Notes: generated from the letters alone by a model not told the origin. 64,000 bases of DNA from an uncultured Poribacteria bacterium (GCA_958296135.2 CATQHZ020000001.1:3552001-3616000); one strand, 5' to 3'. Positions 1 through 36,588 are shown, numbered from the stretch's first letter. Program-made: numbers and translations.

Positions 1-431
1 CCGTAAAAAGATTCCGTCATCCGCGTCGCATCGGGCAGCTGGCTCTGGAATTCCGCCTGGTTCACCGTTCTTCGGCTGATTTTTTCGTTCCGCTGCTTTG
101 CATACTCGGCGTAAGTCAAGACATCCCCGCTCTGGTAGAGCGGTTTGCTCACATAAGCGGCCTCGCACTCCTTGATATAGGTATCGTCAATATCGCGCAG
201 TGGCTGCGCAGCGTTGGTGAAAAGTAGGTTTGTCACGTAGGCGTTGACACGCCGAATGTCCTCGGATTCCATGTAGGTGGTATAGGTATCTTTACCGGTT
301 CTGAGGCGGAACATGCTGCCAGACACATCGTAGATGACGATGATGTGTTTGGCATTCGCAACAGACGTAAAACCTATCATAAAAACGAGCAAAACAGCGA
401 GGCATGCGGCGTAACGCGATAAATTCTTCAT
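1..431 (-). CDS. Exported vWA-domain protein (partial, runs off the left edge)
   Basis: Not in the ORF track; translated by hand from ATG at 431: MKNLSRYAACLAVLLVFMIGFTSVANA-KHIIVIYDVSGSMFRL... Signal peptide followed by the DxSxS MIDAS motif; starts 1 nt after the upstream stop. Confidence 0.75.
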   Translation of the reverse strand, partial: MKNLSRYAACLAVLLVFMIGFTSVANAKHIIVIYDVSGSMFRLRTGKDTYTTYMESEDIRRVNAYVTNLLFTNAAQPLRDIDDTYIKECEAAYVSKPLYQSGDVLTYAEYAKQRNEKISRRTVNQAEFQSQLPDATRMTESFY

Positions 432-432
432 C

Positions 433-1830
433 TCAATCTCCTAATAAATTCAGGCAAACCAACCGGTCTTTGCACAGAATAAACAGTTTGTCACCATATT
501 GAATAGGCGCAGCAACAGGAACAGGATTATCCGGCATCCCCATCGCCAACGCTTGATGCGACACGGTGTAAGTCGGTTCAAGTTCCTGGAGAGTCAATCC
601 AGATGAATGCGCCGAATAAATTCGGTTGTTCACCGCAATTGAACGGTGTGGGACAAACCTCTGCAACATGTTGCCGCTCCCCAGGTGGCTCTCCGAGGCC
701 AAATCGATATCGCCATCAATGTTGATATGATAGGTATACCGTTTCTGCCCCGATTGATCGGAGAGGAACAGTCGCCTGCCATCGGTGAGCGGCGGATGAA
801 CAAAGAGTTTCAGGTGTTGTGCCACATTTGACACTGCGTCTAAGGTTGCCACCTGCGACAGTCGTTTGGTTCGCGGTTCATAACGCGCGAGACTGCGCCT
901 TCCATTGCTGGTGCTCACTGCTTCAAAATAGACGCTACCGCCGAGCGAGATGGGTGCGGAAAACGATTGAGCTTTAAAGGACTTCGCTTGATAACGTTTG
1001 CTTCCAAGGTTCAGAGCAAAAATATGGCCGCGCTTGGAGGTGAAAACGACAGACTCGCCACAAAGCGTCGGAGACATGGGTTCGTTTTCCGCGTTGAAGA
1101 AATCGTGAGGGACGTAGTCTCTGTCGCGGCTAGTCAGTTCTAACAACAATACGCCTTGTTGCAGTCCGGCAATCATCGTCTGTCTGCCTGCCACATCGCA
1201 TTTTAGCGGTGCGCATTCAGGCAGCGGTTCAATCTGGGCGGCATCCAGTCCCTTTATCTCAACGGGTTCCGATTTTCCATCCAAAACCGACGTTTTGTGA
1301 ATACCGCCGGAAACCACGTAATAGAGATGGAGCCCGTGATAGACAGGCGTGCATCCATGCGTCAACGGCGCGTTGAAGGGAATGCTCCATTGACGCGAGA
1401 GATGCCGCTGCTCTGGATGCTTTGCAACCGTATAAGCATCTAAACGTTGTGCTTCAGGATTCGGCACAACGATGAGTCCATCAACGGCGAGTAGCCCCGG
1501 CAAGCTTTCACCGGTTTCTATCTTGGGGATTTCCGCTGCTCCGGAAAAGAACCCACAACTGTCCAAGAGTTGGGGCCCAGTGGGTTCTCCCATCTGCAGC
1601 GTTGCGGTCCGCTGCGGATTGGCATAAGCCATCTCCCACGCCGCCGGTCTCCTGAGTTTTTTCCCGCACTGCGTGCAAAAGCGGGCGAACGCGCGGTTCC
1701 AATGGCCTTCAGGACATAGGCAGGCAACCGTGGCGCACTGCTGACAATACGCCACGGTTGGGGTTTTTCTGTCATTCGCTGCAGGCAAATCGCAGGCACT
1801 CTTTTGGCTTGCAGTAGGACAGTTCGTCAT
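433..1830 (-). CDS. N-terminal Zn-ribbon plus PQQ-like beta-propeller protein
   Basis: CQQC...CPEGH...CTQC, then W-x-M-x-x-x-NPQRT and repeated blade motifs (TPVYHG, SPTLCG, SAPISLGG, APIQYGDKLFI); ATGA overlap with the upstream gene. Confidence 0.65.
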   Translation of the reverse strand: MTNCPTASQKSACDLPAANDRKTPTVAYCQQCATVACLCPEGHWNRAFARFCTQCGKKLRRPAAWEMAYANPQRTATLQMGEPTGPQLLDSCGFFSGAAEIPKIETGESLPGLLAVDGLIVVPNPEAQRLDAYTVAKHPEQRHLSRQWSIPFNAPLTHGCTPVYHGLHLYYVVSGGIHKTSVLDGKSEPVEIKGLDAAQIEPLPECAPLKCDVAGRQTMIAGLQQGVLLLELTSRDRDYVPHDFFNAENEPMSPTLCGESVVFTSKRGHIFALNLGSKRYQAKSFKAQSFSAPISLGGSVYFEAVSTSNGRRSLARYEPRTKRLSQVATLDAVSNVAQHLKLFVHPPLTDGRRLFLSDQSGQKRYTYHINIDGDIDLASESHLGSGNMLQRFVPHRSIAVNNRIYSAHSSGLTLQELEPTYTVSHQALAMGMPDNPVPVAAPIQYGDKLFILCKDRLVCLNLLGD

Positions 1831-2474
1831 TCCGCTCCCTCCGGTTCCGTTTCTGAGTAGACGAGTACAATCTCAATTCGGCGGTTTTTCGCGCGGCCTA
1901 CCTCAGTCCAATTTGAGGCAACCGGATGGTATTCTCCATACCCGGTCGCGATGAGTGTGCGCGCATCGATGCCGACTTCATCAACGAAAAGCCGTAAAAC
2001 AGCAATGGCACGAGCCGAGGAGAGCTCCCAGTTCGATGGAAATTGCTCTGTCTCAATCGGAATGTTGTCAGTATGGCCGTTGATTTGCACGCGTTGATAT
2101 AACCGCTGGTTTTTCTCATCAGTTTCATAACGCTGCAATAACCTTCCGACGGTAGCGAGGGTCGTCTGTCCGAGAGGTTGCAACTCTGCCTCAGCCGTGT
2201 GAAAGAGGATCCTGTCGCTAAAACTGAACCGCTGCAGATTCCCATCGCGCTCAATTGCAATGGTGCCATCTGCTATCTCCGCTTCAAATTCTTTCGCAAA
2301 CGCTGCCTGGATAGTCTCCTGCTTTTTCTCCATCCGGATTTTCAGAATCAGTTTGCTGTTGGCAATAAACTGAATGAAAAGGAAGAACAGGAAGATGAGC
2401 AGCATCGCGATGGCCACATCGGTAAAAGCGGGCCAGATATTCAGAACGGATTTTTGCCGCATGCGTAGATCCAT
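1827..2474 (-). CDS. ZorB/MotB-like protein (TM helix plus OmpA-like peptidoglycan-binding domain)
   Basis: WPAFTD-TM with the conserved Asp, GHTD, NWELSSARA, NRRIEI; start placed at ATG 2474. Confidence 0.85.
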   Translation of the reverse strand: MDLRMRQKSVLNIWPAFTDVAIAMLLIFLFFLFIQFIANSKLILKIRMEKKQETIQAAFAKEFEAEIADGTIAIERDGNLQRFSFSDRILFHTAEAELQPLGQTTLATVGRLLQRYETDEKNQRLYQRVQINGHTDNIPIETEQFPSNWELSSARAIAVLRLFVDEVGIDARTLIATGYGEYHPVASNWTEVGRAKNRRIEIVLVYSETEPEGAE

Positions 2475-2488
2475 CGAAATCTTCCTTG

Positions 2489-4513
2489 TCACTTCTCGCC
2501 ACGGAACCACCGGCGGATTCCGGAAATCCAACGGGATACCCCAGGTTGACGCATCGTGTTGTTCAGTTCGTCTAGTTTTAGAGAAATTTGCTGCAACAAC
2601 TCAACCAGGTCTCCGGTTGGAAGAGCCGTAGGCGGCGGCACTCTCGGGTCCGATGGTTTTGAATTCGCCGCAACCCTTCGGACAAGCTCAACAAGCTCTT
2701 GAATGTGTTGATTCTGCTCGTTAGCCAGTCTGCCGTATCCATTCAGATGGCCTTCAATCCGTCCAAACATCTGATGCTGTGCATCCAAGGCCGAACCAAT
2801 CTGCAACTCCTCCGCAATCCGTCGAAGCAGCTGGTTCTGCACATCAAGTGCCGAACCAATCTGCAACTCGCCTAAGAATTGTTGGAGCACCTGAAGCATT
2901 TCCTGCTGATAAGCCTCAATGGACTGAAAGGACTGCCCGAGTTGTTGTCCATTTGTATCAAGCTGTTGCTGAATTCGCTCGAACGCCTGATTCTGTGCCT
3001 CAATTGCCGAGCGGATTTTCAACTCGTCTGCCAGTTGCGTCAGGACATGCACCACATTTTGCTGCTGCCCTGTGATGTCACGAATCTCGGAGAGCAAGGT
3101 ATCGGAAAGGTTCTTAAGGAGCTCGGCTTGTGAGTCCTGATACTCACGCAGTGCCGCTTGCGATGCCTCCCTTTCTTCCATTACCAATTCCATCAGGACA
3201 CGCACCATATCCTGATGCCGCTCTGAAACGGTGTGAATTTGGGATTGCAAGGCAGTGGAGAGCGTGTCAATGAGCTCGGCTTGTGAGTCCTGATACTCAC
3301 GCATTGCCGCTTGCGATGCCTCCCTTTCTTCCGTTACCAATTCCATTAGGACACGCACCATATCCTGCTGCCGCTCTGAAACGGCGTGAATTTGGGATTG
3401 CAAGGCAGTAGAGAACTTGTCAATGAGCTCGGATTGCGATGCCTGATACGCTCGAATCGCCTCTTGCAACGCCGTGCTCTCGTCTTCTAGCCGCGGCACC
3501 GACTCTTCTAGGACTCGGTTCAGCGCGTCTTGATAGCCGCCAATTTCAGCCATTGACTGCGCTGTCATTGCCTTAAAGGTATCAACAGCGGAGGTGATTA
3601 GCAGCTGATACTCGTTGATTCCACCTAAACTTTTCAGGAGATTCTCCGAGGTTTCGTCAAACTTGAATGCCAATATCTGTTGCTGCTCAAGATGTCCACC
3701 CCATGAAGTATCGGTGAGTTGCTCAATCGCCCGCCGCATCGCGGCAACATTTTCATCCGTGGCGAACTTCAACATGTCGGTGCACTCGGAGAGTCGCTGA
3801 ACAGCAGACTCAATTGACGCTTCTGGCGTTTGCGTGAAATGCGGCAATATAACAGTTGATACGAATTCCTCAAGTGCAGTGAGAAAAAACGATTGCACCC
3901 GACTAAAGCCTAAGCCGACAAGGCCTAAAACGAGTGACGTTAGCAAACCCGTTAACGTGGTAACGAATGCCGTGCTCATGCCGCCGACGGTGAGTTCCAG
4001 CGTCTTAGATATCTCAGCAAGTTTGTCAAAATCGTCGATGCCTGTCACAATGGGACGCACTTGGATGAGTGCCGTAATTAAACCCCATAATGTTCCCACC
4101 AAACCGAGGATAATCAGGATGCCGAGGATATGGCTGGCGAAACTGGCCCTTCGGCTCTCTTTGCCGGTGAGAATGTCAGCGAGGGCATCGTTATCAATTT
4201 GCCCACCGCTGTCTCTAATTTGGAGCAAAGCCCCGATGCGCCGATAGATAATGCTTCGAGGCCAAACCTTCGCCTCGTCGAGCCTCTTAAGCAAATGAGA
4301 GACATCCCCGAACCCATGATTGAGCGTAAAATAGGTCCGGACGCGCCTCAGATTTTCCCACTGCCATCCTATCCACGCCATCTGCAAAAGATAATTGATA
4401 ACACCAATTGCAAAGAAGCCGCAAATTGCCCATACGATGCTTCTACCGGTTGCATCGTCAAGACTAAAAATAAATTGGAACAATTCTCCCACGCTGTTAT
4501 CTCCATCAGGCAA
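2489..4513 (-). CDS. ZorA-like MotA/TolQ/ExbB protein with long helical tail
   Basis: Three TM segments including LGLVGTLWGL and GMSTAFVTTLTGL, followed by a ~450-aa Q/E-rich helical tail. Confidence 0.8.
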   Translation of the reverse strand: MPDGDNSVGELFQFIFSLDDATGRSIVWAICGFFAIGVINYLLQMAWIGWQWENLRRVRTYFTLNHGFGDVSHLLKRLDEAKVWPRSIIYRRIGALLQIRDSGGQIDNDALADILTGKESRRASFASHILGILIILGLVGTLWGLITALIQVRPIVTGIDDFDKLAEISKTLELTVGGMSTAFVTTLTGLLTSLVLGLVGLGFSRVQSFFLTALEEFVSTVILPHFTQTPEASIESAVQRLSECTDMLKFATDENVAAMRRAIEQLTDTSWGGHLEQQQILAFKFDETSENLLKSLGGINEYQLLITSAVDTFKAMTAQSMAEIGGYQDALNRVLEESVPRLEDESTALQEAIRAYQASQSELIDKFSTALQSQIHAVSERQQDMVRVLMELVTEEREASQAAMREYQDSQAELIDTLSTALQSQIHTVSERHQDMVRVLMELVMEEREASQAALREYQDSQAELLKNLSDTLLSEIRDITGQQQNVVHVLTQLADELKIRSAIEAQNQAFERIQQQLDTNGQQLGQSFQSIEAYQQEMLQVLQQFLGELQIGSALDVQNQLLRRIAEELQIGSALDAQHQMFGRIEGHLNGYGRLANEQNQHIQELVELVRRVAANSKPSDPRVPPPTALPTGDLVELLQQISLKLDELNNTMRQPGVSRWISGIRRWFRGEK
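3121..3430. repeat. 153-bp (51-aa) intragenic tandem repeat
   Basis: gctcggcttgtgagtcctgatactcacgca at 3121 and 3274; protein unit ELIDxxSTALQSQIHxVSERxQDMVRVLMELVxEEREASQAAxREYQDSQA. Confidence 0.9.
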
Positions 4514-4807
4514 AAACTATTAAGACTTATCAGCAAAGCATACCAAATTCCGCCAAAAAAGTCAAATTCACTTTTAGTTGTGGTCCTGCATTGACCTTTT
4601 GGGTTGCTGCTGGAGCCCTGTGACACTAAGGTTTTCGCAAAAGTGCAGGACTCACTAACTTTTTTTTGCGATTTTTCAATTGGTTTTGTTAAGGCGGTTG
4701 CAGCGTTGTGTCACAGGGGTTTCTCGTGCCTTGCGACAATTTGGATAAGGTCAATTTCGGTTAAGAAATTGACCTTTGGGTTAAAAATAGTTTCATGAAC
4801 GCCTGTG

Positions 4808-5200
4808 CTACAGGGGTTCGTCGGCTTCGGCGAATTTTTGGTTGAACTCCCAGAGTTGCAGGACGGCTTGCCATTCGTCGTATTGCTGAAAGACGTATGG
4901 TTCTTCATTCTTGAGTTTGATATCCGCGCTTCCTTCGGTGTCGGTTCCGATGTCTGCTTGCGGATAGGGTTCGTCGGAGCAGTGTCCGAAGATGCTTGCA
5001 TCGCCGATGGAGGTTTGCCTGTCCTCGCTGAGGAATCGTTGCTGGCCCGGGTCATAGTGGTATTCGGGTGGTTTTTCTGCTTCTTGTTGCAGGACGTTTG
5101 CGTATCGAAACCATCCGAATGAATTGCTTTTGGTCCACCGGTTCGTGTTTATGCGTGGAAGAGGGTTTCTCTCTCCCGCGCGCCGGTAATGGTACTGCAG
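4808..5200 (-). pseudogene. Start-less open frame, possible gene remnant
   Basis: Stop-free frame ...WFRYANVLQQEAEKPPEYHYDPG...WQAVLQLWEFNQKFAEADEPL* with no start codon; its 5' end runs into a palindromic repeat. Confidence 0.3.
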
Positions 5201-5204
5201 ACAT

Positions 5205-5227
5205 CGAGACCGGGAGGTCTCTCCTAC
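5205..5227 (-). repeat. GTAG palindromic repeat, family R3 (GTAGGAGAGACCTCCCGGTCTCG)
   Basis: Identical 23-mer at 29331-29353; one-mismatch copy at 8555-8577. Confidence 0.85.
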
Positions 5228-5265
5228 CGGACCTTCGCGCGATGGTGAGGGCCGGGGTGGTGGCC

Positions 5266-6054
5266 CTATCTTTTGAGCTGGGCGATGGCCTCCTCCACGC
5301 GCCGTATTCGAATCTCTGTAGGGAATGGATCTGTAAGTGCCAGACCCAATTGTTTCTCCAATTTTGGCAGGATGATGTGTTTGACGATACCGTCTAACTC
5401 CACCCGGTGCCGGGCCCCGATATGGCCCAAGACATGAGGGGCAACATACACGCCCATGGCCTCATCGTCCTCTTCGTCCAGATAGGGGAGGAGGTAGGGG
5501 ACAACGGGCGGCCCCATGGCGATGAGGGCTTCGCGGACAGGGGCAGTTCCTATGTTACCCCCACACTCATAAGCGACGAGGGTTTCGATGGACCGCGGGT
5601 CGCGGAGATAGGCGAGTTCGTCTAGCAAGTCGCCGATTTCTTCTGCATGGGCCTCGCTCTCAAGATAGTCAACTATCGGTGTCAATTGTTGGACGAGCCC
5701 TGCGGTTCGGGGGTCTGCGTTGCCGCCCCAGGCGAAGGGGTTGTCGGCGATTTCGTCAAGTTTGGCCCAGGCCTTGGCGATGGGGTCGTCTGCATCGAGT
5801 TCGTCGAGGTTGCCGGGTTTGACGAGTTCTGGCAGTTCAATATGTTGTTGCCAGTCGACGCTGGGTATCAGGTCGCCGGTGTCGTCATGTGCATCGTCGT
5901 CGGGTTTCCCGTGGCCGCCGGGTTGTTCGTCGGCGGCGGGTGGCACGGGGAGTGCTGCGTCGAATTGTGCTTTTTGCCATTCGGCATAGAAGTAGAGGGC
6001 AAGGCAGAGGGCGAGCAGGAGGCAGAAGCTGCTGATGATAGTTTTGGCGTTCAT
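5266..6054 (-). CDS. Membrane-anchored hypothetical protein with HEAT-like helical C-terminus
   Basis: N-terminal TM, acidic linker, LAYLRDPRSIETL / ALIAMGPPVVPYLL motifs; GGAG RBS. Confidence 0.6.
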   Translation of the reverse strand: MNAKTIISSFCLLLALCLALYFYAEWQKAQFDAALPVPPAADEQPGGHGKPDDDAHDDTGDLIPSVDWQQHIELPELVKPGNLDELDADDPIAKAWAKLDEIADNPFAWGGNADPRTAGLVQQLTPIVDYLESEAHAEEIGDLLDELAYLRDPRSIETLVAYECGGNIGTAPVREALIAMGPPVVPYLLPYLDEEDDEAMGVYVAPHVLGHIGARHRVELDGIVKHIILPKLEKQLGLALTDPFPTEIRIRRVEEAIAQLKR

Positions 6055-6087
6055 GAGGGTTCTCCTCGTTTTATGGCAATCAAGTAT

Positions 6088-6208
6088 CGAGCCGCGGGAG
6101 GGCTCTCCTACAAGGCTTCGAGACCTTTTGGCTCTCCTACCGAAGGGGAGTCGAGACGCAGGAGGGCTCTCCTACCGAACGCATCGAGACCTTTTGTCTC
6201 TCCTACGG
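6088..6208 (-). repeat. Cluster of four R3-like GTAG repeats
   Basis: Four units of the form cgag...ctctcctac. Confidence 0.75.
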
Positions 6209-6260
6209 GACTCAGCTTCATCTCGGGTGCGGGGAGATGAAGAGGTGTTGTTCGGATGAT

Positions 6261-6509
6261 TCACGCGTGAGTCATCCGGTTGTCCTTTTCAAGGATGACC
6301 TGTTTGGGTTCCGACGAGGTGGAAGGGGACATCGCTTTTGTGTTCGGGCTTCCAACCGAGGGTCGGCTTTTTAGTTTGCCGGCGTTGCTTTGTGCTAAGA
6401 CTGCGCGCACGGCAGTTTCGTGAGAAATGCCGTGTTGACGATACCGGGCAAGGGCAGCATCATAGGCGGTTATCGCTTTATGGTTTGGTTTGATGTTCCA
6501 TGTTGGCAT
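6261..6509 (-). pseudogene. N-terminal remnant of a restriction-modification enzyme, paralogous to 36589..39669
   Basis: MPTWNIKPNHKAITAYDAALARYRQHGISHETAVR aligns with MQALNLNPNSRAVRDYYATLRQYATHSISHEGAVS, then diverges. Confidence 0.7.
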
Positions 6510-6702
6510 AAGATTTAGTGTAGCATATTTTGCACGAGAATTGCAAGAAAATTGTCTGACTCAGGATTTGCAGGATGAACGGGACTTAGGGTTGGCGCGC
6601 TGCGGAAGTGGCGGCGGCCGGGCGAAAGACAGGCCCTCACCCTACGGTAATGATGAAGGAAGCAACCTGAAAACGAGAGGGTTCTGACAATTGAAAAAAG
6701 AT

Positions 6703-6731
6703 TTGACATATTTCGCGAAATGTAGTATAAT
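6703..6731 (+). promoter_or_regulatory. Consensus sigma70 promoter
   Basis: TTGACA-17-TATAAT; the spacer contains the palindrome ATTTCGCGAAAT. Confidence 0.85.
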
Positions 6732-6813
6732 TAACAATACTTTTCAACAGTAGGAAACGCGGGAAGGAAACCGATTTCTCTACCGCACCTGCTGAAAACT
6801 ATAGGAGACATTT

Positions 6814-8424
6814 ATGAACACTAAATATAGCGCAGTGCAGGCACGCGCATTTTCAATTGTCACGGCAATGGTTGTCGTGTTGTTTTCACTCTCGGCAGTC
6901 TTGCTGTCCGGGTGTGAACGGATGACGGAAGTGGTGGCACCACCGGATACCACCGCGACCACGTTAAAGGTTGGCGTGATTCAGCCGTCAAAGTATTATA
7001 CCTCTTTCACCAAAGGTGCGGAACTCGCCCGCGCCGAAATCAACACAGCGGGCGGTGTCCTCGGCATGCAGGTGGCATTTGTCTATCGGGATAACCAGAC
7101 TTCTCCGGACATGTTTCCCACGCCGGAGGCAACTATCCAAGTCGCCACAGAGCTCGTTGAAACAGAGAAAGTCGCGGCGATATTAGGCCCGATTTTCTCA
7201 ACGAACGCGCTGCCACTGGCCCCGGTTGTTGAGATTCCGACACTCACCGCTGCAACGGATGCAAGCGTGACACAGGCAGGCGAGTTTATCTTTATCGTCA
7301 GTGCCCCGAACAGGTTGCACGCGCAAGCCATAGCGGAATTCGCCGCGAATGAGCTCGGCGCAAAAACGGCCGCCACGATTCACCAAGATGGCGATGTCTA
7401 CTCCATAGGACACGTCAACGCGTTCAATATGCGTTTCAAGGCACTCGGTGGAGACATCGCTGTCGCCGATGTTTATCAATCTGGCGACACCGACTTTAGC
7501 GCGCAACTCGCGAAAGTGAAAGCAGCGGCACCGGACGTACTCCTGCTCTCCAGTTGGGCACCCGAAGTGCCCTTGTTGATCAAACAAGCCAAGGAGATGG
7601 AGATTCCTGCAACCCCCATCGGCGGCGATGGATGGGCAGATCCTGCGCTATTTTTCAACACGCTGGAAGATAACACGCCGTTAGACGGAAGTTACTTCAC
7701 ATCCGAACTTTACGACACGACAAATGCGCCGCCAAGCACGCAAACATTTGTCGCAGCCTATACCGAAATGTACGGGATAGCCCCCGATGGTGTGGCAGCG
7801 TCAGGCTATGACGCTATGAAACTCTTGGCCATAGGGATTGAACAAGCAGCATCAACAGAGCCCATCGCCGTGCGCGATGCAGTCGCCGGCATAACCGACT
7901 ACGCTGGGGCCACGCTCATCTCTCGTTACGATGAAAACCGCAACCCTGTCAAAACCCTGAGTGGCGTTTTGGAAATTCGTGACGGGAAAGTCCAACCCTA
8001 CGCCGCAATACCAGAAACGGATACGATGCCGACAGATGAAACATCTGATGCAGGGGACATGACGACAGATACGCCCGCAACGACAGATGAAACCACCGAT
8101 GCGATGGATGCTGACGATGCAGGGGAGATGGATCCCGAGATGACCGCGCCAGAGGCAGAAGATATGAAGACTGATGCCGATGCCGATGCCGCAGACCCGA
8201 AGGATAAGACCGGGGATGGGGATGCTGATGAGGCAGGGAAGACGGATCCCGAGATGACCGCGCCAGAGGCAGAAGATATGAAGCCTGATGCCGATGCAGA
8301 TGCCGCAGACCCGAAGGATAAGACCGGGGATGGGGATGCTGATGAGGCAGGGAAGACGGATCCCGAGATGACCGCGCCAGAGGCAGAAGATATGAAGCCT
8401 GATGACGCAGACCTGAAGAAATAA
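6814..8424 (+). CDS. LivJ/LivK-type ABC substrate-binding lipoprotein with acidic repeat tail
   Basis: LSGC lipobox, EINTAGGVLG, TDFSAQLAKVKAAAPD, GYDA; GGAG RBS. Confidence 0.85.
   Translation: MNTKYSAVQARAFSIVTAMVVVLFSLSAVLLSGCERMTEVVAPPDTTATTLKVGVIQPSKYYTSFTKGAELARAEINTAGGVLGMQVAFVYRDNQTSPDMFPTPEATIQVATELVETEKVAAILGPIFSTNALPLAPVVEIPTLTAATDASVTQAGEFIFIVSAPNRLHAQAIAEFAANELGAKTAATIHQDGDVYSIGHVNAFNMRFKALGGDIAVADVYQSGDTDFSAQLAKVKAAAPDVLLLSSWAPEVPLLIKQAKEMEIPATPIGGDGWADPALFFNTLEDNTPLDGSYFTSELYDTTNAPPSTQTFVAAYTEMYGIAPDGVAASGYDAMKLLAIGIEQAASTEPIAVRDAVAGITDYAGATLISRYDENRNPVKTLSGVLEIRDGKVQPYAAIPETDTMPTDETSDAGDMTTDTPATTDETTDAMDADDAGEMDPEMTAPEAEDMKTDADADAADPKDKTGDGDADEAGKTDPEMTAPEAEDMKPDADADAADPKDKTGDGDADEAGKTDPEMTAPEAEDMKPDDADLKK
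8131..8403 (+). repeat. 114-bp (38-aa) intragenic tandem repeat, about 2.4 copies
   Basis: gatcccgagatgaccgcgccagaggcagaagatatgaag at 8131, 8245 and 8359. Confidence 0.95.
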
Positions 8425-8452
8425 GTCCGGGGATTCCTCTGAGACAGAAAAG

Positions 8453-8635
8453 GCGGTAGGCGCGCCCACCCTATCTCGATTTCTTGCGGTAGGCGCGCCC
8501 ACCCTGTCTCGATTGCCTGCGGTAGGCGCGCCCACCCTGTCTCGATTGCCTGCGGTAGGAGAGACCTCCTGGTCTCGATTTCTTGCAGTCTTGATTTCTT
8601 GCGGCAGGCGCGCCCCCCCTGTCTCGATTTCTTGC
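8453..8635 (+). repeat. Tandem array of 33-bp GTAG repeats between convergent genes
   Basis: gcggtaggcgcgcccaccctRtctcgatt at 8453, 8486, 8519, with variants at 8552 and about 8601. Confidence 0.9.
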
Positions 8636-8642
8636 TCGGTTT

Positions 8643-9737
8643 CTACATACCGAGCACAACTGACAGAGCCGGCAAATGCGCGACAACCCCTGCGTGGTCT
8701 GACGGCCAGATGCCGGATGGGAGCAGGTCTGGCGTTTTGTCCCCCACCGTGTGCGTTACCACAGGCCCGGCGAGCTCATAATTCCGCACAAAAACCTGGT
8801 CGATGCGATATGACAACCCACTCTCTGCATTTCCGAGCCCGGCGGCTTGACAACAGGTATTCCCCGTAACACCAGCCTCCATCTGCCATACGTCAACATA
8901 TCCTGCCGATAACAGCATCTGGTAGGCAGTGCCCTCAGGTGCCGCCGTGTTAAAATCGCCTAGTAAAATAATAGGCAATGTTTCATCGTGAAGAAGCGTT
9001 AGCAACTCCTGCGCTTGCGCAACCCGAATCGGTTCCCCGAACGCCTCTAGGTGCGTATTAACAACGCGATAGGTAACCCCGCCAACCGTCGCATCTATGG
9101 CGACGTACCCTCTCGGTACCTCCAGGAGGAGGGTTTCAATAGAGAGCGCGTTCATAAAATTCGCGCTTTCCACGCGTGAAACGCCGACATCGCTGCGCGC
9201 GAGGAGCACATCAAAGTCAGTCAGCCGCGCGTCGTCAATCCCGGCATCAGTGAACATCGGCATCTCAATGTCAATGTTTTCGACTTTAGCGGCAACCTGA
9301 TAACTCAAGCCTTCCGCTTGTAGTGCGTCCATCAAAATTTGCAAAAAATCGAGGACGACTTCTTCCGCCTGCACTTCGCCTCCGGCAATCCTATCTCCCG
9401 GGGACTGCAGCCTCACCAAAGATACCTCTTGTAATCCGACGATGTGCGGTTGCGCAGTCTTGATAGACTTGGCAATTGCCGTGGCGCGCGCCGGAAAATC
9501 CGAGGCGATAACACCGTTATACATGTTGGCGACTTCTGTCGGCACCTGCAGCAGATTCGTTGTGGCCAGAAGCGGGTCCGCGCTCGCACCAACGTAGACG
9601 TTGTAAGTCATTACCGACAGCTGTTCCACTTCGGGGGCATCAACAGGCGGTGCGATAATTGTGTCGCTCATTTTCTCACATCCGGAAAGGATAGCGAGGC
9701 ATATAAACAACGAAAAAACAATTTTGACTCGTGACAT
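8643..9737 (-). CDS. Endonuclease/exonuclease/phosphatase family lipoprotein
   Basis: LSGC lipobox, MTYNV, GLQEV, NTHL, GDFN, RID, PSDH motifs. Confidence 0.9.
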   Translation of the reverse strand: MSRVKIVFSLFICLAILSGCEKMSDTIIAPPVDAPEVEQLSVMTYNVYVGASADPLLATTNLLQVPTEVANMYNGVIASDFPARATAIAKSIKTAQPHIVGLQEVSLVRLQSPGDRIAGGEVQAEEVVLDFLQILMDALQAEGLSYQVAAKVENIDIEMPMFTDAGIDDARLTDFDVLLARSDVGVSRVESANFMNALSIETLLLEVPRGYVAIDATVGGVTYRVVNTHLEAFGEPIRVAQAQELLTLLHDETLPIILLGDFNTAAPEGTAYQMLLSAGYVDVWQMEAGVTGNTCCQAAGLGNAESGLSYRIDQVFVRNYELAGPVVTHTVGDKTPDLLPSGIWPSDHAGVVAHLPALSVVLGM

Positions 9738-9830
9738 AATTTCATATCTCCTTTCAATTATTACAGAAATTAGCCAAGGCGCACCCCGCGTAAGCGGAGA
9801 CGCAGAAGCAGTTTTCTTGCCAAGGCATCC

Positions 9831-11255
9831 TTACCGAACGCTTGGCGACAATACAGAAGAGGCATACAAAAACTCCCCGTCCATCGCGGTTAATTTGACA
9901 CGTAGAATGTGGTTAATCGATGCCTCCGGCGTATCGACGAGGACACGCAGATAGTTATCCGTAAAGCCGGCAAGGTGTTGCGCTTGTCCCTCGCGGCTAT
10001 CTTCAACGAGCAATTCCGTATCCTTTCCAAGCATCCGTCGTCGAAACGCCGTGCCGAGTTGCTGGCCTAACTGAATCATTGCGCGGCTCCGCGCGGCGGA
10101 GACATGCGGTGGAACCTGGGCTTCGTAGGTGGCAGCAGGCGTGCCTTTGCGGGGCGAATACCGAAACACATGCAGCTGACTGAAGCCAATCTGCTCCACA
10201 AATTGAAGGGATGTCTCAAAATCGGCATCGGTTTCACCGGGAAACCCTACCATGATGTCGGTAGTCATCCCGACATCATCGGTGAAGAGCGTCCGCAGTC
10301 TCTCAACGAGGTGTGCGAACTGCGCCGTGGTATAGCGGCGCCGCATGCGCTGCAAGACGTTATCAGCACCGGATTGCAGTGGGAGATGGAAGTGCGGCAT
10401 ACACTTCGGCAATGCGGCCATCCGTTCCGCGAGGACATCTGGAAAATACATCGGTTCAATGGAACTGAACCGGATGCGCGTGATGCCTTCAATTCCGTGA
10501 ATCCGTTCTAAAATGTCGGCGATATCCTTGTCTCTACCCGAATCCAACCCATAAGCACCGAGGTGCACACCGGTGATAACGATTTCCTTAATGCCGTTGT
10601 CCGCGATGCGACGCGCTTCGTCCACGATGTCGGCAAGTGGACGGCTCGTCATGCGGCCGCGCACATAAGGGATAATGCAGTAAGTGCAGAAGGCACTGCA
10701 CCCATCTTGCACCTTGATAAGCGCGCGCGTCCGTTTCCCCGCGCTACTCACCCCGCTGCTGAACCGTGCGTGTTCTCGAACTGCGTCGTGTTTTTCGTAT
10801 TGGCGCAATGCGTTTGATAACGTCTCCGGTGCAATGAAGTCACTCTTCGTAGCACCGCGCGCCCCTTTGTTGCCTGCGGCGTTCCTCTGGCTGATTTGTT
10901 CAGCATCTAATGCGTCCAGATACGTCTGAAAATCCGCCTTTTCGCGATTGCCGAAGACCACGGTGACACCCGGAATCTTCTCTATCGCCCCCCGGTCGCT
11001 CTCAGCGTAGCACCCTGTGACAAGCACTTTCGCATCGGGTGCTTCTCGGAGCACCCGGCGGATAACCTGACGTGCCTTCTGGTCTGCAGTATTTGTGACG
11101 GTGCAGGTATTAATAAGATAGAGATCGGCGCGAGGCGTTTCCTCAACGACAGTGTAGCCGTTGCGAAGAAGCGTCTCCTGCATCGACTGCGTATCGTATT
11201 GGTTCACCTTGCATCCCATTGTAATGAGTTTAACTGTTTTCATCTCTATAGACAT
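9831..11255 (-). CDS. mtaB: tRNA t6A37 methylthiotransferase
   Basis: GCKVNQY, NTCTVT, TGCYA, QDGCSAFCTYCIIP radical-SAM motif, TRAM-like end; follows rsmE. Confidence 0.92.
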   Translation of the reverse strand: MSIEMKTVKLITMGCKVNQYDTQSMQETLLRNGYTVVEETPRADLYLINTCTVTNTADQKARQVIRRVLREAPDAKVLVTGCYAESDRGAIEKIPGVTVVFGNREKADFQTYLDALDAEQISQRNAAGNKGARGATKSDFIAPETLSNALRQYEKHDAVREHARFSSGVSSAGKRTRALIKVQDGCSAFCTYCIIPYVRGRMTSRPLADIVDEARRIADNGIKEIVITGVHLGAYGLDSGRDKDIADILERIHGIEGITRIRFSSIEPMYFPDVLAERMAALPKCMPHFHLPLQSGADNVLQRMRRRYTTAQFAHLVERLRTLFTDDVGMTTDIMVGFPGETDADFETSLQFVEQIGFSQLHVFRYSPRKGTPAATYEAQVPPHVSAARSRAMIQLGQQLGTAFRRRMLGKDTELLVEDSREGQAQHLAGFTDNYLRVLVDTPEASINHILRVKLTAMDGEFLYASSVLSPSVR

Positions 11256-11380
11256 TAAGGGACTAACGGTGCTTCATCTACCTATTGCGAGGGGCACCCT
11301 CGGCGATTAGTGATCGCCGGGCCCTCGCGCTGCAGTAACTAGGGATTCCGAAGGACCGGCCCTCGCTCTTGGTTAATTGC

Positions 11381-12148
11381 CTACGGATAGTATTCATAAA
11401 CGACAACTGCGACGCAGGCAATCGCAGCTGTTTCTGTCCGCAAGATATGCCGCCCGAGTGTTACAGGAATGCATCCCTTTTCTCTCGCAGCGTTCACCTC
11501 TTCCGTCGAGAATCCGCCTTCCGGTCCGATAAAAATGGCGATGGCTTCTGCGGGTGGTGCTTGCCCTTCCCACTTTTCACGTAGGGCGATGGCTTGTCCT
11601 GCGCGATGCCTCAACACTGTTTTGATATGTCGTTCCTGCTCATTTTCGCTGCAGATTAGGCAGAGCGCGAACTTCTCTATCTGCGTAAGACACTCTTCAA
11701 ACTCTTGTGCGCGTGACAATTCGGGTAGCCAAGCGCGTCTGCATTGCTTTGTCGCGGAGACAACGACGCGCTGCCACCTTTCACACCGTTTCTGGCTCGG
11801 CTTTTGCAGCGAACGTTGCGAATGCATCGGCACAACCTGTGTCACACCGAGTTCTGTCGTTTTCTGCAGAATGAGCTCCATTTTATCATGCTTTGGCATT
11901 CCCTGAAAAAGCGTGAGTGACGGCGAAATCGGCGCGTGAAATGCATGAGACAGAACCTCTGCCTGTGTTGCAACTGCCATCTCCGTATCAAGCACGGTCG
12001 CGATATAGACTGTCCCCTCGCCATCAATAAGAGAGATATTCTCCCCCGGTCGGACACGGAGCACATTCCGGAGATGGTGATGCTCATGCCCTGTAATTGT
12101 CGCGATGTCTCCCTCAAACTGCGAAGGCGCGGCATAAAAGGTGTGCAT
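11381..12148 (-). CDS. rsmE: 16S rRNA m3U1498 methyltransferase
   Basis: HHLRNVLR, QKTTELGV, IGPEGGF, LGRHILRTETA; start placed at ATG 12148. Confidence 0.92.
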   Translation of the reverse strand: MHTFYAAPSQFEGDIATITGHEHHHLRNVLRVRPGENISLIDGEGTVYIATVLDTEMAVATQAEVLSHAFHAPISPSLTLFQGMPKHDKMELILQKTTELGVTQVVPMHSQRSLQKPSQKRCERWQRVVVSATKQCRRAWLPELSRAQEFEECLTQIEKFALCLICSENEQERHIKTVLRHRAGQAIALREKWEGQAPPAEAIAIFIGPEGGFSTEEVNAAREKGCIPVTLGRHILRTETAAIACVAVVVYEYYP

Positions 12149-12245
12149 CTGTCTCACCGTTCCGTTTAACGTAAGTGTAACGTACGCGCCCGTTGCTCCA
12201 GAGCATGCAGTCGTATTGCCGAATGTCGCATATAGAAATCCGCCC

Positions 12246-12899
12246 TTACCCTTGCCGCAACTTTTCAATGACGACTGCCGGCTGCGGGCTTCGGAAAATA
12301 GCCGTTCCTGCGACAAGAATCGTCGCACCCTTTTGGACTGCTAGCGGCGCGATTGCCGGCGTTACGCCGCCGTCAACCGAAATCTCAACGGCGAGGTTTT
12401 GTGCGTCAATCATTTGACGCAATCGCGCTATTTTTGCAAGGGCACTCCGTTGAAATGTTTGTCCTCCACGGCCCGGTTCAACGCTCATCGGTAGCACCAG
12501 ATCGAGCTGCGAAAGATAAGGGATAACCGTATCAATAGAGGTTTCCGGCGATAAGGCTAAACCGACCTTGATGCCGCGCGCTTTAATTCCGGCGATGACC
12601 GCGGCTGGTGCATCGGCACTTTCGATGTGGAACGTAATCATATCCGCCCCTGCCGTTGCGAGCGCATCCAGATAACGGAATGGGTGCGTTACCATGATGT
12701 GAACATCAAAAGGCACATCTGTCGTTTTGCGGAGCGCGGCGATAGTCAACGGACTGATGGCAAAATAGGGAACAAATTCGCCATCCATGACATCAAAATG
12801 GAGCAGATCTGCCCCGGCTGCGACTATTCGCGTCACCTCCTCACCGAATCGGGTAAAATCAGATGCCAGCATCGAAGGGGCAATTTTCAGTTTAAACAT
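12246..12899 (-). CDS. rpe: Ribulose-phosphate 3-epimerase
   Basis: IAPSML, HFDVMDG, DVHIMV, MSVEPG, VDGG. Confidence 0.92.
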   Translation of the reverse strand: MFKLKIAPSMLASDFTRFGEEVTRIVAAGADLLHFDVMDGEFVPYFAISPLTIAALRKTTDVPFDVHIMVTHPFRYLDALATAGADMITFHIESADAPAAVIAGIKARGIKVGLALSPETSIDTVIPYLSQLDLVLPMSVEPGRGGQTFQRSALAKIARLRQMIDAQNLAVEISVDGGVTPAIAPLAVQKGATILVAGTAIFRSPQPAVVIEKLRQG

Positions 12900-12953
12900 G
12901 TTTTTCAACTACGATTGACGCAGAACCAAATGCAACGGAACAAACTTGAAATT

Positions 12954-12979
12954 GGGCGGATAGAGACATCCGCCCTTAC
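12954..12979. repeat. Palindromic repeat family R4 (GGGCGGATAGAGACATCCGCCCTTAC)
   Basis: Identical copy at 52429-52454; variant at 34511-34542. Confidence 0.85.
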
Positions 12980-13076
12980 ATTTTCTAGGCACCCTCGGCG
13001 ACAGAACAAACCCGGGAGGCGCGGTCGCCAATCGTGCACATTTGAAAAGCATGCCTAGGGATAAGAATGCCGGAAC

Positions 13077-14054
13077 CTATTGATAATGAATTTCAGGCAA
13101 TCTATTCCCATCTTCGTATATGTTCACACGTGTGCTACCGAAAACCCGAACGCCTTGCCTATCCAAGTCAACCACAGTGCCGGGGGCATAGTGCCGGTCT
13201 ACCACGGTGCGTTCGCCGTGTTCATCACTGACAACGATTCGGATATGTCGCGACAGATTCCCCTCCTCGCTCACTAGGTGCTTCAGGGGGAGCAATCGCC
13301 CGATGTCTTTCGTTTCCCTTCGCGCGCCGCTGACTTCAAGTTGAACGGTGCTGCCGCCTTGGATGAGTTCACCTGCGGCAGGTTTATGCGTAATAATGCG
13401 CCCCTTCGGAATCTTCGGGTGCGGACTATACTGGATTTCAACCTTGAGCCCTACCTCTTCTAGTTTCGGTCCCACCTCTCTCACAGGCTGTGTGCGGAGA
13501 TCTGGCAGTTGGATGCTTTGCGGCATTGCGCCGAGACTCACCAAGAGGTTCACATCGCTCCCCCGCTGTTGTCCACCCCCTTCAGGTGGCGATTGCGCGA
13601 TGACGGTATTCGGCAGATACTTCGCCGAATGGACGTAGGCGAACCGGTTGGGCCGAAACCCTGCGGCGGTGAGTGTCGCGCGCGCCTCATCCAGCTGTTT
13701 TCCGATAACAGAGATAACCGGTGCCAACTCCGCACCGATGCTCACGGCAATTTCAACCGGCTGATACGACTTGATCCGGAAATTCGCCGGCGGATTTTGG
13801 GAGACGATTTCGCCTTTGGGCGTGGTGCTACTCGCTTCCAGAATAGTCTCAGCGGGACGCAACCCGGCTTCATCAAGCACGCGCACCGCTTCATAATAGG
13901 GCTTCCCGGTGACGTTCGGGACAACGACTTCCTCCGTCCGGACCCACCGTGGCATCACCACAAGAATCGTCAGCACGCCGACAATGCCGAGCACAATCAA
14001 GCAATAAAGCAACACTTTGAATATCGCAAATAAGGGATTGTTGATGCCTTTCAT
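13077..14054 (-). CDS. Membrane-anchored protein with three PASTA domains
   Basis: TM, then VPNVTG..IVSQNP, VIAQSP and LPDL..IITHKP repeats; no kinase domain. Confidence 0.85.
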   Translation of the reverse strand: MKGINNPLFAIFKVLLYCLIVLGIVGVLTILVVMPRWVRTEEVVVPNVTGKPYYEAVRVLDEAGLRPAETILEASSTTPKGEIVSQNPPANFRIKSYQPVEIAVSIGAELAPVISVIGKQLDEARATLTAAGFRPNRFAYVHSAKYLPNTVIAQSPPEGGGQQRGSDVNLLVSLGAMPQSIQLPDLRTQPVREVGPKLEEVGLKVEIQYSPHPKIPKGRIITHKPAAGELIQGGSTVQLEVSGARRETKDIGRLLPLKHLVSEEGNLSRHIRIVVSDEHGERTVVDRHYAPGTVVDLDRQGVRVFGSTRVNIYEDGNRLPEIHYQ

Positions 14055-14146
14055 TTTTTGGGATTTCCTAGCGGTGGTTTGACATTGTCCCCCAAAACAC
14101 TAAAACTTGCACTCTTTCGATTAGCCACGTCACCCCCCGCGTAAAG

Positions 14147-15190
14147 TCACGTTATCAAACGCGGGGCGACACTACAAAATCTCTCGCCGGTTTTCAGGTG
14201 GTATCCGTTTACAAAATCGCGCGCGTCCATCGCCTTCTTCGTTGCAGGTTGAACTTGCAAGAGTTGAAGCGTTCCTTCCCCCGTTGCGACGAGCAGCTGC
14301 GGTTCACCCGCTTCCACCCTCCCGTAGCGCGGGGGCCTGTCCGCCGCGTTTCTGACAATCTCAATTGTTCCCGGAAGCAAGGTGGGTGCCTGCTGCAGTG
14401 GCAGACAGCGGAGAATCTTGAGTCGCATATCCTCCCTGAAAAAGGCATACGCGCCGGGCCAACCTGCGGTGCCTCTCACGAGATTGTGGATAGCGGTTGC
14501 GGCGCAGTGCCAGTCAATGTGCCCTGTCTCCTTTGTGAGGCGCGGTGCGTGCGTCGCTTCGTCGTGATGCTGCGGCATCGAGAGGGGTGGCGCGCCCGCC
14601 GGCATCTCTGTCAGCACCTGCACCAACAACTTGGCACCGAGGCACGCTAACTTCTCCATCAACGTTCCGGTTGTATCCTCATCCCCAATGAGAATCCGTT
14701 CTGCACAGATAATCTCGCCGGTATCCTCTCCCGCGTCCAGCAACATCAGCGTGATGCCTGTCTCGGGCTCGCCGTTGATTAGTGCCCATTGCACCGGGGC
14801 AGCCCCTCGGTACTTCGGAAGGAGAGATGGATGCAGGTTGATAGTACCGCACGGCGGGATGTCCAACATCGCTTGCGGCAGCAGCTGCCCGAAAGCGGCG
14901 ACGATGATGACATCCGGCGCGAGGCGTTCCAGCGTTCGGATAAAACTGCGCCGCCGAACCTTTTCCGGTTGATAAACCGGTAGGTTGTGCTGTTCCGCTA
15001 CCACCTTGACAAGCGGCGGCGTAAGTTGTCTGCCGCGTCCACTGCGCCGGTCGGGCTGCGTAACGACACCGATGAGCTCATATTTGTGGGCTATTAATGC
15101 GCTCAGTGCCGGAACCGCAAATTCACTGGTGCCCATAAAGAGAATTTTCGTCTGTCGCAATGCGTTTGATAACGTTTTCCGTGCAATCAC
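14147..15190 (-). CDS. fmt: Methionyl-tRNA formyltransferase
   Basis: FMGTSEFA, VTQPD, NLHPSLLPKYRGAAP. Confidence 0.95.
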   Translation of the reverse strand: MIARKTLSNALRQTKILFMGTSEFAVPALSALIAHKYELIGVVTQPDRRSGRGRQLTPPLVKVVAEQHNLPVYQPEKVRRRSFIRTLERLAPDVIIVAAFGQLLPQAMLDIPPCGTINLHPSLLPKYRGAAPVQWALINGEPETGITLMLLDAGEDTGEIICAERILIGDEDTTGTLMEKLACLGAKLLVQVLTEMPAGAPPLSMPQHHDEATHAPRLTKETGHIDWHCAATAIHNLVRGTAGWPGAYAFFREDMRLKILRCLPLQQAPTLLPGTIEIVRNAADRPPRYGRVEAGEPQLLVATGEGTLQLLQVQPATKKAMDARDFVNGYHLKTGERFCSVAPRLIT

Positions 15191-15258
15191 GTATCTGTTC
15201 CTTTGAACCTACACAAATCGAGACAAGAGCAGAGATAACGTCTATTGCGTTACCATCT

Positions 15259-16431: not shown

Positions 16432-16957
16432 ACATCCGTGAGGAAAAGACGTGGAGAATCTCCAGCAAATCGGAAGTAAGTTCCTGTTCGGGACTGTGAG
16501 TAGTTTGGTTGAGAACCACGACTTCTCCACCGTTTTGCTCGATAAGATATCGAATGACTTCGCTGCCGAAGCGGGCGAGTCTATCCCGATGGGCGACCAC
16601 AACGCGGCGTTTATCACCGCACAGGACTCTGTCCAATATCCGCTGGAGGCCTTTTCGCTTGAAGTTAATGCCACTGCCGAAGTCTTGGATAACTTCCGCT
16701 TGGGGGAACTTTTCTTGCATGTAGGCGACTTGCGAGGCGAGGGCGTCCGCCTGCGCTTTTCCGCTGACGCGGCAGTAGCAAATGGTAGAAATGTCTGGTT
16801 TTCGTTGAGCATCAACAAACTTCTGGACATCGTAACGCCGATGACCGCCTCCAGTGCGCACGCAGTCGATTTCGCCGCGGGCTTCCATCCTGCGAAGGTG
16901 CTCGATGGAAATATCCAACACCTGCGCAGCGTTTTGTGGTGACATTAGGTGATTCAT
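16352..16957 (-). CDS. tnpA: IS607 TnpA serine recombinase
   Basis: MerR-like HTH with RTGGGHRRY, YCRVSG, DFGSG, HRDRLARFG, FSSRMYGLR; TTGAAA-17-TATAAT ends 6 nt upstream of the ATG (leaderless). Confidence 0.93.
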   Translation of the reverse strand: MNHLMSPQNAAQVLDISIEHLRRMEARGEIDCVRTGGGHRRYDVQKFVDAQRKPDISTICYCRVSGKAQADALASQVAYMQEKFPQAEVIQDFGSGINFKRKGLQRILDRVLCGDKRRVVVAHRDRLARFGSEVIRYLIEQNGGEVVVLNQTTHSPEQELTSDLLEILHVFSSRMYGLRRYRDEIKADRNLTHNGTESETP

Positions 16958-36439: not shown

Positions 36440-36552
36440 CAGCGTACGTCCTCCGTGCAATGTTCGCATGGGGAGAGTCTACCACGGAACCAAAAATTTG
36501 TCAACTGAACTCTGATAATACCCAAGACGATTTAGTTCTCCCTTTTTTTCTC

Positions 36553-36582
36553 TTGACACAAAACCCCCAATGTTGTTATCAT
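36553..36582 (+). promoter_or_regulatory. Sigma70 promoter giving a probable leaderless mRNA
   Basis: TTGACA-18-TATCAT, ATG 6 nt later, no RBS. Confidence 0.65.
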
Positions 36583-36588
36583 ATCTCT

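Follow-up and report, generated by a model that had tools for sequence, protein, structure and literature searches.

A ZorAB-like motor pair built into a conserved FtsZl1-vWA-Hsp70 operon of Candidatus Poribacteria

What does a motor pair of the Zorya kind do when the genes around it are not those of Zorya? Zorya systems with a ZorAB core were reportedly described by Doron in 2018, and a pair resembling that core stands at the head of a minus-strand operon at the start of a 64-kb stretch from an uncultured Poribacteria bacterium (G000:C1:3552001-3616000, hereafter the window). An earlier, sequence-only reading of the window had pointed to four coupled minus-strand genes, for a MotA-like protein with a long helical tail, a MotB/OmpA-like partner, a Zn-ribbon/propeller protein and an exported vWA protein, and had supposed that the operon continues beyond the window. 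Both points held. The four genes, here called A to D, are present, with B and C overlapping by 4 nt and C and D separated by 1 nt, and in the 18 kb directly left of the window (L002), read for the continuation, the minus-strand operon runs on unbroken, adding eight genes after D over about 16 kb. In total, the operon comprises 12 genes in about 20 kb, in the order A-B-C-D-D2-E-F-G-H-I-J-K. It is a real, well-conserved accessory operon, in which a ZorAB-like motor is built into an FtsZl1-vWA-Hsp70 system; its parts were each known before, and the ZorAB link was not found in print.

Gene A (2489..4513, minus strand) encodes a ZorA-like channel subunit of the MotA/ExbB type, whose longest open reading frame (ORF) has 674 aa; the probable start is the GTG at 4492, which gives 667 aa, and the database copy also has 667 aa. 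Three transmembrane (TM) segments were assigned by eye from the sequence and the alignment, and the motifs GT in TM2 and TAFxTT in TM3 are invariant among orthologues. The protein matches Pfam MotA_ExbB at 4.6e-5 with 23.6 bits, just over the cut-off of 22.9 bits, and the PADLOC models ZorA3 (6.8e-16, residues 127-584) and ZorA1 (4.7e-8), with a weak 56 bits against the ZorA hidden Markov model. Moreover, residues 1-335, from which most of the tail has been removed, still match ZorA1 (2.5e-9) and ZorA3 (5.9e-9). The tail itself is cytoplasmic and helical, measures about 460 aa and carries a conserved basic/aromatic motif at its C-terminus. Tandem Repeats Finder located two minus-strand repeats in it, one at 3119..3467 (153-bp unit, 51 aa, 2.3 copies, 91% matches) and the other at 2755..2869 (60-bp unit, 20 aa, 1.9 copies); these repeats are recent, and A orthologues range from 554 to 735 aa, with the alignment gaps falling in the tail. 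No match of A to plasmids was found by tblastn, and a complex prediction of the tail tip (600-674) with C scored 0.01, which is informative neither way.

Gene B (1827..2474, minus strand) encodes a ZorB/MotB-like protein of 215 aa from the ATG at 2474, the probable start within a longest ORF of 1827-2531, with one TM segment and an OmpA-type peptidoglycan-binding domain (Pfam OmpA, 1.7e-16; PADLOC ZorB3, 1e-28). The TM Asp (FxD) and the motifs GHTD, SNWELSxxRAxAV and NRRIEI are invariant in 21 sequences. Accordingly, the MotA-like and MotB/OmpA-like assignments of the earlier reading stand.

The kinship of A to ZorA, as judged from sequence profiles, is real but remote. A search of a large protein collection recovered 124 relatives of A among 7998 scored candidates, and the profile of the A motor domain recovered, from 1.84 billion sequences, 2566 cluster representatives at E <=0.001, 540 at 1e-10 and 33 at 1e-30. 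Among 32 sampled family members, 21 match ZorA1 and 16 match ZorA3, weakly (best 4.5e-24). Searched against the PDB, the profile of this wider family found the type I ZorA of Shewanella sp. ANA-3 (8vvn, 2.4e-18, aligned over 7-461), E. coli ZorA (8qyd, 1.7e-9) and the type II ZorA of S. kujiense (8vvi, 2.2e-7). ZorA chains were the only subunits of 5:2 motors among its best 60 PDB matches, the rest being helical bundles matched by the tail; no MotA, ExbB or TolQ chain was among those 60. The earlier choice of a ZorAB-like pair, rather than one of the ExbBD, TolQR or MotAB kind, is borne out by this result, and a flagellar, Ton or Tol stator was rejected on the profile evidence and the lack of such partner genes in the operon.

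According to the available text of the reports on Zorya, the ZorA tail is essential, each truncation tested having abolished defence (PMC11946911), and relays a signal to cytosolic effectors (PMC11946911; PMC11890865). The Poribacteria locus shares with Zorya a MotA/ExbB-type TM domain with a long cytoplasmic helical tail in A, a MotB-type partner with TM Asp and peptidoglycan-binding domain in B, and ZorA and ZorB models as best matches in the PADLOC defence library. It differs in its other partners, namely a vWA/FHA membrane protein, a propeller protein, a tubulin-like GTPase and an Hsp70-like ATPase, and in being a 12-gene unit outside a defence island. PADLOC, run on the 12 proteins of the operon and on the two genes that follow K, found no ZorC or ZorD (type I), no ZorE (type II) and no ZorF or ZorG (type III) (for ORFs on the upstream side the scan was by Pfam alone, and the rest of the genome was not searched), so that the absence of these partners, noticed earlier within the window, extends to the left continuation. 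Since the Zor effector genes are absent from the operon, canonical Zorya was rejected and the locus is not filed under that name; A and B would work like a ZorAB core with other partners.

The third gene, C (433..1830, minus strand), encodes a cytoplasmic protein of 465 aa with a Cys-rich Zn-ribbon region followed by a PQQ/BamB-like 8-bladed beta-propeller, as the earlier reading had proposed. Seven Cys and one His are invariant in the alignment of the N-terminal 55 residues. The structural model has an all-beta repeat fold (pLDDT 66.9, core >80), and in Foldseek it comes closest to BamB 8-bladed propellers (E 5.9e-11, TM 0.37/0.47). Neither PADLOC nor Pfam gave a match to C (for Pfam, over the cut-off), and a hydrophobic N-terminus was looked for and not found.

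Gene D, on the minus strand, has its first 143 codons at window 1..431 (ORF 3-431) and its full length at L002 16506-18431, encoding 641 aa. Pfam found nothing in it, and its layout comes from the model (pLDDT 76.1) and from predictions: a signal/anchor, a vWA domain with an intact metal-ion-dependent adhesion site (MIDAS), two beta-sandwiches (residues 223-480), a TM helix predicted at 487-509 and a cytoplasmic FHA-like domain. Dozens of solved vWA domains can be aligned with residues 24-215, the best being that of CLCA1 (Z 9.8, root-mean-square deviation 3.0, 132 residues), and the ESM Atlas provided a vWA lead (score 0.90); the DxSxS motif, T106 and D175 are invariant in 18 orthologues. Furthermore, residues 517-621 align to the Rad53 FHA domain (Z 9.0), and canonical phosphothreonine-binding residues are not evident by eye. 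On this model, D is a bitopic membrane protein whose vWA head faces the periplasm and whose FHA-like domain faces the cytoplasm; the earlier description of an exported vWA protein was right as to fold, and fell short in leaving out the TM helix and the FHA-like domain.

Beyond D, all the genes lie on the minus strand of L002. D2 (15780-16265, 161 aa) has four hydrophobic segments, compatible with a 4-TM protein, and E (12373-15747, 1124 aa) is an FtsZl1/Tubulin_2 protein, matching PF13809 at 2.1e-46 over residues 6-373; a whole-genome search with PF13809 found E in the same place at 2.1e-47. Its motifs GLGTTG and GGxCSG are present in 17 of 17 orthologues. Regarding this gene, a tandem second copy was seen inside one operon (L028 6199-8775 and 8917-12045, G171:C1), one copy bearing a stop (1 TAG), and some carriers have a second full-length FtsZl1 elsewhere on the chromosome (G066:C1:3579208-3580377, 947 aa; G053:C1:2291276-2292409, 971 aa). 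F (9580-12366, 928 aa) combines a Zn-ribbon, an Ig-like region and an HSP70 match (7.6e-29), and its ATP motifs are intact, with DFGTT, DFGGGT and AGQSS invariant. G (8337-9545, 402 aa) has no family match; its likeness to DUF5716 clusters comes from language-model features alone (30 of 30 matches, score 0.95), and hhalign found no relation of G to F.

H (7108-8289, 393 aa) and I (5957-7090, 377 aa) are paralogues with a common C-terminal domain, and they are possibly GrpE-like cofactors of F. Indirect support for this likeness comes from a Pfam-GrpE protein in a related metagenome locus, L074, and from F and an H-type domain lying in one open frame in 2 of 17 loci (L028 2555-6046, 1164 aa; L039 9671-13264, 1198 aa), a fusion which argues that F and H/I act together. 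J (4918-5955, 345 aa) is a periplasmic transglutaminase-like protein with a signal peptide and a C-terminal TM segment, matching PDB 4fgo_A ('Periplasmic protein') at 2.3e-4; we take 4fgo to be a LapG-type transglutaminase-like, adhesin-processing protease. K (2312-4909, 865 aa) has Ig-like and CBM48-like matches. The enolase-superfamily gene that follows K is not conserved with the cluster. C, E, F, G and K are without signal peptides, and nothing in the operon was recognised as an outer-membrane or secretion-system gene. Profile searches of the PDB with C, D, G and H/I gave nothing significant, PADLOC found no Zor effector and no other significant defence model among the operon proteins left of the window, and none of the 12 proteins matched a Pkinase or GTPase family in Pfam, although divergent GTPases may escape it.

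The link between these genes is conserved. A scan of species genomes for A gave 21 loci, all of Candidatus Poribacteria or in metagenome-assembled genomes (MAGs) of uncultured bacteria, and the A-B-C-D order is kept in 19 of them, 16 of which extend through D2, E and F; in the remaining two, from one MAG, G-H/I-J-K lies directly upstream of A. In 17 further stretches of 20 kb, which come mostly from the same species genomes and therefore overlap the first set and are not independent of it, A-B-C-D-D2-E-F is present in all 17, with G in 17, J in 16 and K in 15 within the 20-kb reach, and each locus has one or two genes of the H/I type. The earlier reading depended on a link of the motor pair to the propeller and vWA genes, and this link is therefore conserved. 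Of 176 genomes sampled from the phylum, 22 match A strongly (best E <=1.3e-71), and 18 more have weak matches alone (E >=9.3e-8). The spread is patchy within genera, with strong A in 6/40, 7/65 and 4/20 genomes of three genera, and the genomic position of the operon differs between genera, the genes of the upstream flank in the window being common only to two loci of the same genus. Of the 22 genomes with strong A, 21 also have a strong PF13809 match, the exception being 86% complete and in 210 contigs; conversely, seven genomes of the phylum have strong PF13809 without an A orthologue.

ZorAB-like pairs also occur in other cassettes. Traced from the weak A and PF13809 matches, a second, divergent operon lies in five other Poribacteria genomes (L080, G136:C35:108000-126000; L081, G144:C15:191500-209500; L082, G104:C1:511000-529000; L083, G134:C50:4000-22000; L084, G094:C33:1000-19000), with its core kept in all five. 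It encodes proteins of 485 aa and 158 aa, a short Tubulin_2 protein of 491 aa (PF13809, 3.9e-9), proteins of 1011 aa and 359 aa, a ZorA-like protein of 739 aa (about 600-800 aa across copies), an OmpA/MotB-like protein of 271 aa and a homologue of J (61-63% identity); a K homologue is added in L084, and a ThsB-type TIR gene in L080 alone. From this second operon it follows that, on at least two occasions in the phylum, a ZorAB-like motor either became paired or stayed paired with a tubulin-like GTPase. In addition, on a plasmid of Deinococcus deserti the MotA-like gene beside a tubulin-like gene matches ZorA1 (1.6e-7).

Outside Poribacteria, a metagenome scan with a subset of distant ZorA-like members (A6) gave 15 loci, of which eight had usable flanks and were scanned (59 ORFs), six short loci and one weak match being left out. 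Directly after the ZorA-like ORF stands an ORF of 205-233 aa in 8 of 8 loci, seven of these matching OmpA, and the neighbours include a CHAT protease with a ClpB-like AAA+ ATPase (6/8), a Ser/Thr kinase (7/8) and TPR proteins (5/8), with no Tubulin_2 in any of the eight. These cassettes look like an uncharacterised family of motor-linked conflict-type systems, and together with the second Poribacteria operon they point to a modular motor front end. As to their distribution, CHAT/ClpB-like/kinase cassettes were seen on L066, L068, L069, L072, L073 and L075, and a sigma-70 region 2 protein (extracytoplasmic function-like) in L068, L069 and L075. The L074 locus (about 100-15800) encodes a kinase-Hsp70 fusion (1206 aa), ZorA-like (593 aa) and MotB-like (232 aa) proteins, a 438-aa protein with a Pfam GrpE C-terminus (6e-8) and a vWA-STAND ATPase (1104 aa); its Hsp70-like protein is homologous to F (9e-23 over 582 residues), and in L074 the Hsp70 theme and a ZorAB-like pair meet outside Poribacteria. 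A separate observation concerns a ZorA-like cluster representative of 772 aa (P0185) with a TIR-like C-terminus (PADLOC SAVED_TIR, 2.1e-7), which, judged from its sequence, would join a motor subunit directly to an effector domain of the defence type.

How much of this was already in print? FtsZl1 was defined in operons with vWA, OmpA-family, kinase and GTPase genes, for which membrane remodelling was proposed (Makarova and Koonin, 2010; PMC2875224). In the parts of that report available to us, the table lists vWA-FtsZl1-'B7'-COG1360 (MotB-like) in cyanobacteria, FtsZl1-MotA/TolQ/ExbB-OmpA in two Deinococcus genomes, a GrpE-annotated gene in Chloroflexus and a DnaK gene in Magnetospirillum, while OmpA-like proteins are taken as membrane transport or porin-type, the paper predating Zorya (PMC2875224). 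The locus resembles those operons, as far as they are described there, in having E, an FtsZl1 of about 1100 aa, beside a MIDAS-intact vWA membrane protein and an OmpA/MotB-like gene; it differs in uniting all the accessory themes in one 12-gene unit and in having a MotA-like protein with a full ZorA-type tail. Among the accessory genes frequent in the 2010 operons, the OmpA-like one is present here as B, and Pkinase and P-loop GTPase genes were unmatched, although divergent ones may escape Pfam. Later, GTPase-centric systems with a tubulin, an extracellular vWA protein, HSP70 and GrpE were described in Firmicutes and Actinobacteria, with a predicted conflict role (Kaur, 2020; PMC7159879). The locus resembles these systems, as presented in the available text, in several respects: its tubulin homologue is extended at the C-terminus by helices, its vWA membrane protein is extracellular, its HSP70-family ATPase may have an exchange factor, and it encodes proteins rich in beta-sandwich repeats; the word 'MotA' is absent from the main text of that paper (PMC7159879).

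More recently, inner-membrane-tethered vWA proteins were proposed as force transducers of TolQR-like 5:2 motors (MBE, 2025; PMC12204202). Judging from the available part of that work, D is similar in being tethered in the inner membrane and encoded beside a 5:2-type motor pair, and different in that the motor is ZorAB-like with its own MotB-type partner and that D lacks a TonB/TolA-like architecture and has a cytoplasmic FHA-like domain. A 2023 survey of the FtsZ/tubulin family, in the text available, set Tubulin_2 proteins aside as having an unclear history. A full-text search found no literature linking ZorAB-type motors to tubulin-like genes, the supplements of PMC7159879 and part of that of PMC2875224 lying outside that search. 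Calling the system undescribed, as the sequence-only reading had tentatively done, therefore holds for the ZorAB link and not for the classes themselves, FtsZl1/Tubulin_2-vWA-OmpA being known since 2010 and tubulin-vWA-HSP70-GrpE since 2020.

As to how such an operon could work, the likeliest assembly of A and B would be a stator-type complex of the ZorAB kind, driven by ions and anchored to peptidoglycan, with a 5:2 composition by analogy. The tail of A would project into the cytoplasm, with a reach extrapolated as roughly like the 70 nm modelled for E. coli ZorA, a value given in the available text of that report (PMC11946911). Instead of the Zorya nucleases, the motor would be coupled to C, D, E, F, H/I, J and K, and D would link periplasm and cytoplasm. 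On the periplasmic side, D and/or the anchor domain of B might sense a perturbation of the envelope, ion flow would turn A with its tail, and the signal from the turned tail would trigger or localise a nucleoside triphosphate (NTP)-dependent assembly of E and F at the membrane; this assembly would be the output, acting on the invader or on the cell.

Our tentative reading of the operon, at a likelihood slightly below even, is that of a conflict (anti-invader) system which resembles Zorya and belongs to the tubulin-vWA-HSP70 class; we favour a conflict system over membrane remodelling. The conflict reading is drawn from the patchy spread, the shifting genomic position, the ZorA kinship, the repeats in the tail, the 2020 prediction and the conflict-type partners (CHAT, STAND, TIR) of the sister cassettes. 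Several observations weigh against it. Housekeeping genes surround the operon in this genome, and across 80 upstream ORFs of 12 related loci (17 ORFs of two further loci were left out), the 12 PADLOC matches are all generic, being ABC-ATPase-like, TnpB-like, PD-DExK and DUF3800. Pfam and PADLOC recognised no nuclease, NADase, pore or other classic effector domain in the 12 proteins, and Pfam found none of the GAP1/DO-type TRAFAC GTPases that form the core of the 2020 systems in the available text. The GrpE likeness of H and I is weak, since hhalign did pair up the C-terminal region that would be expected, but with E-values of 0.17 and 0.026 and a probability <1%, and PF01025 found in this genome the canonical GrpE only and not H or I. 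A profile built solely from the motor domains of Poribacteria A sequences retrieved no PDB chain of any kind with E up to 10, and hence no solved 5:2 motor subunit, and it is for this reason that the kinship to ZorA is called remote. Finally, the strict 12-gene order, with A down to 33% identity, also fits a long-kept cellular machine, and the literature examined holds no functional test of any FtsZl1 system.

The housekeeping neighbours, the missing effector domain and the strongly conserved 12-gene order speak likewise for a membrane-remodelling or envelope machine, as Makarova and Koonin proposed for FtsZl1-vWA-OmpA operons, and so do the many membrane or periplasmic components and the context analysis in the available part of PMC2875224. 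In such a machine a polymer of the tubulin-like GTPase would form beneath the inner membrane, attached to the wall and powered or positioned by the motor and the vWA/FHA protein, and the Hsp70-like ATPase would remodel this polymer, for vesicle or compartment formation or envelope maintenance. We consider this rather unlikely, given the patchiness within genera, the variable genomic position, the defence proteins as nearest solved relatives, the CHAT, TIR and STAND domains in sister ZorAB-like cassettes and a tail whose length changes fast via tandem repeats. Improbable, in our judgement, is a surface-adhesion, gliding or secretion motor, in which the pair would drive D as a vWA force transducer, together with the Ig-like proteins, in moving or releasing a surface adhesin: the transducer proposal for inner-membrane-tethered vWA proteins, as available (PMC12204202), and the periplasmic vWA head and two beta-sandwiches of D would suit it, whereas the motor is ZorA-like, with a long cytoplasmic tail instead of a periplasmic rotor, most large components (C, E, F, G and K) have no signal peptide, and outer-membrane or secretion genes were not seen in the operon. 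The match of J to 4fgo_A, taken as a LapG-type protease, would also suit such a motor. That two unrelated modules merely adjoin, one being an orphan ZorAB-like pair accompanied by C and D and the other an FtsZl1-Hsp70 cassette, is very improbable; FtsZl1 does occur without this A orthologue in the seven phylum genomes and in many other taxa, and ZorAB-like pairs stand without Tubulin_2 in the eight metagenome loci, but A and FtsZl1 go together in 21 of 22 genomes with conserved order, the intergenic gaps are tiny or overlapping, the second divergent operon again joins a ZorAB-like pair to Tubulin_2, and in Deinococcus FtsZl1 lies beside MotA-like and OmpA genes.

Going further within the conflict reading, we regard as doubtful that ZorAB-type motors are a general modular envelope-sensing front end, repeatedly wired to self-assembling NTPases (tubulin-like, Hsp70-like, ClpB-like/CHAT), and that here a rotating, repeat-tuned A tail nucleates or localises a tubulin-like filament at envelope damage. 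If true, this would be a prokaryotic membrane-to-cytoskeleton immune signalling device without a nuclease effector. Zorya is now understood as a nuclease-recruiting motor, and this locus and its relatives suggest other outputs for the same kind of motor. The coupling, if real, would also provide FtsZl1, an orphan family of bacterial tubulins whose FtsZl1-vWA-Hsp70 operon class has awaited a function since 2010, with a testable input, an ion-driven envelope sensor, and Zorya-type motors would have a much wider role. The locus offers a defined set of 12 proteins for reconstitution, and the ZorAB link makes FtsZl1 function and motor modularity directly testable.

Regarding the rest of the window, the sequence-only reading had seen a restriction-modification remnant nearby as fitting a defence locus, a suggestion that did not survive: the only such gene found lies 32 kb away, with housekeeping genes between. 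This gene (36412-39669, plus strand), probably the remnant meant by that reading, is an ORF of 1085 aa; its domains are a Type ISP coupler, an N6 methylase and a Type ISP C-terminal specificity domain, and no nuclease or helicase match was found in it. Just upstream of A, the segment 4514-6800 is elevated in G+C (0.58), shows a strong skew of both GC and AT, and holds overlapping ORFs (5266-6054 minus, 5647-6240 plus and 4711-5055 minus) with no Pfam match and no counterpart in related loci. Amid the housekeeping genes lies a TnpB/IS605 OrfB-like gene (15259-16830, minus strand; Cas12f1-like TNB and HTH_OrfB_IS605 domains), and TnpB-like genes were also detected in the flanks of two related loci (L005 and L007).

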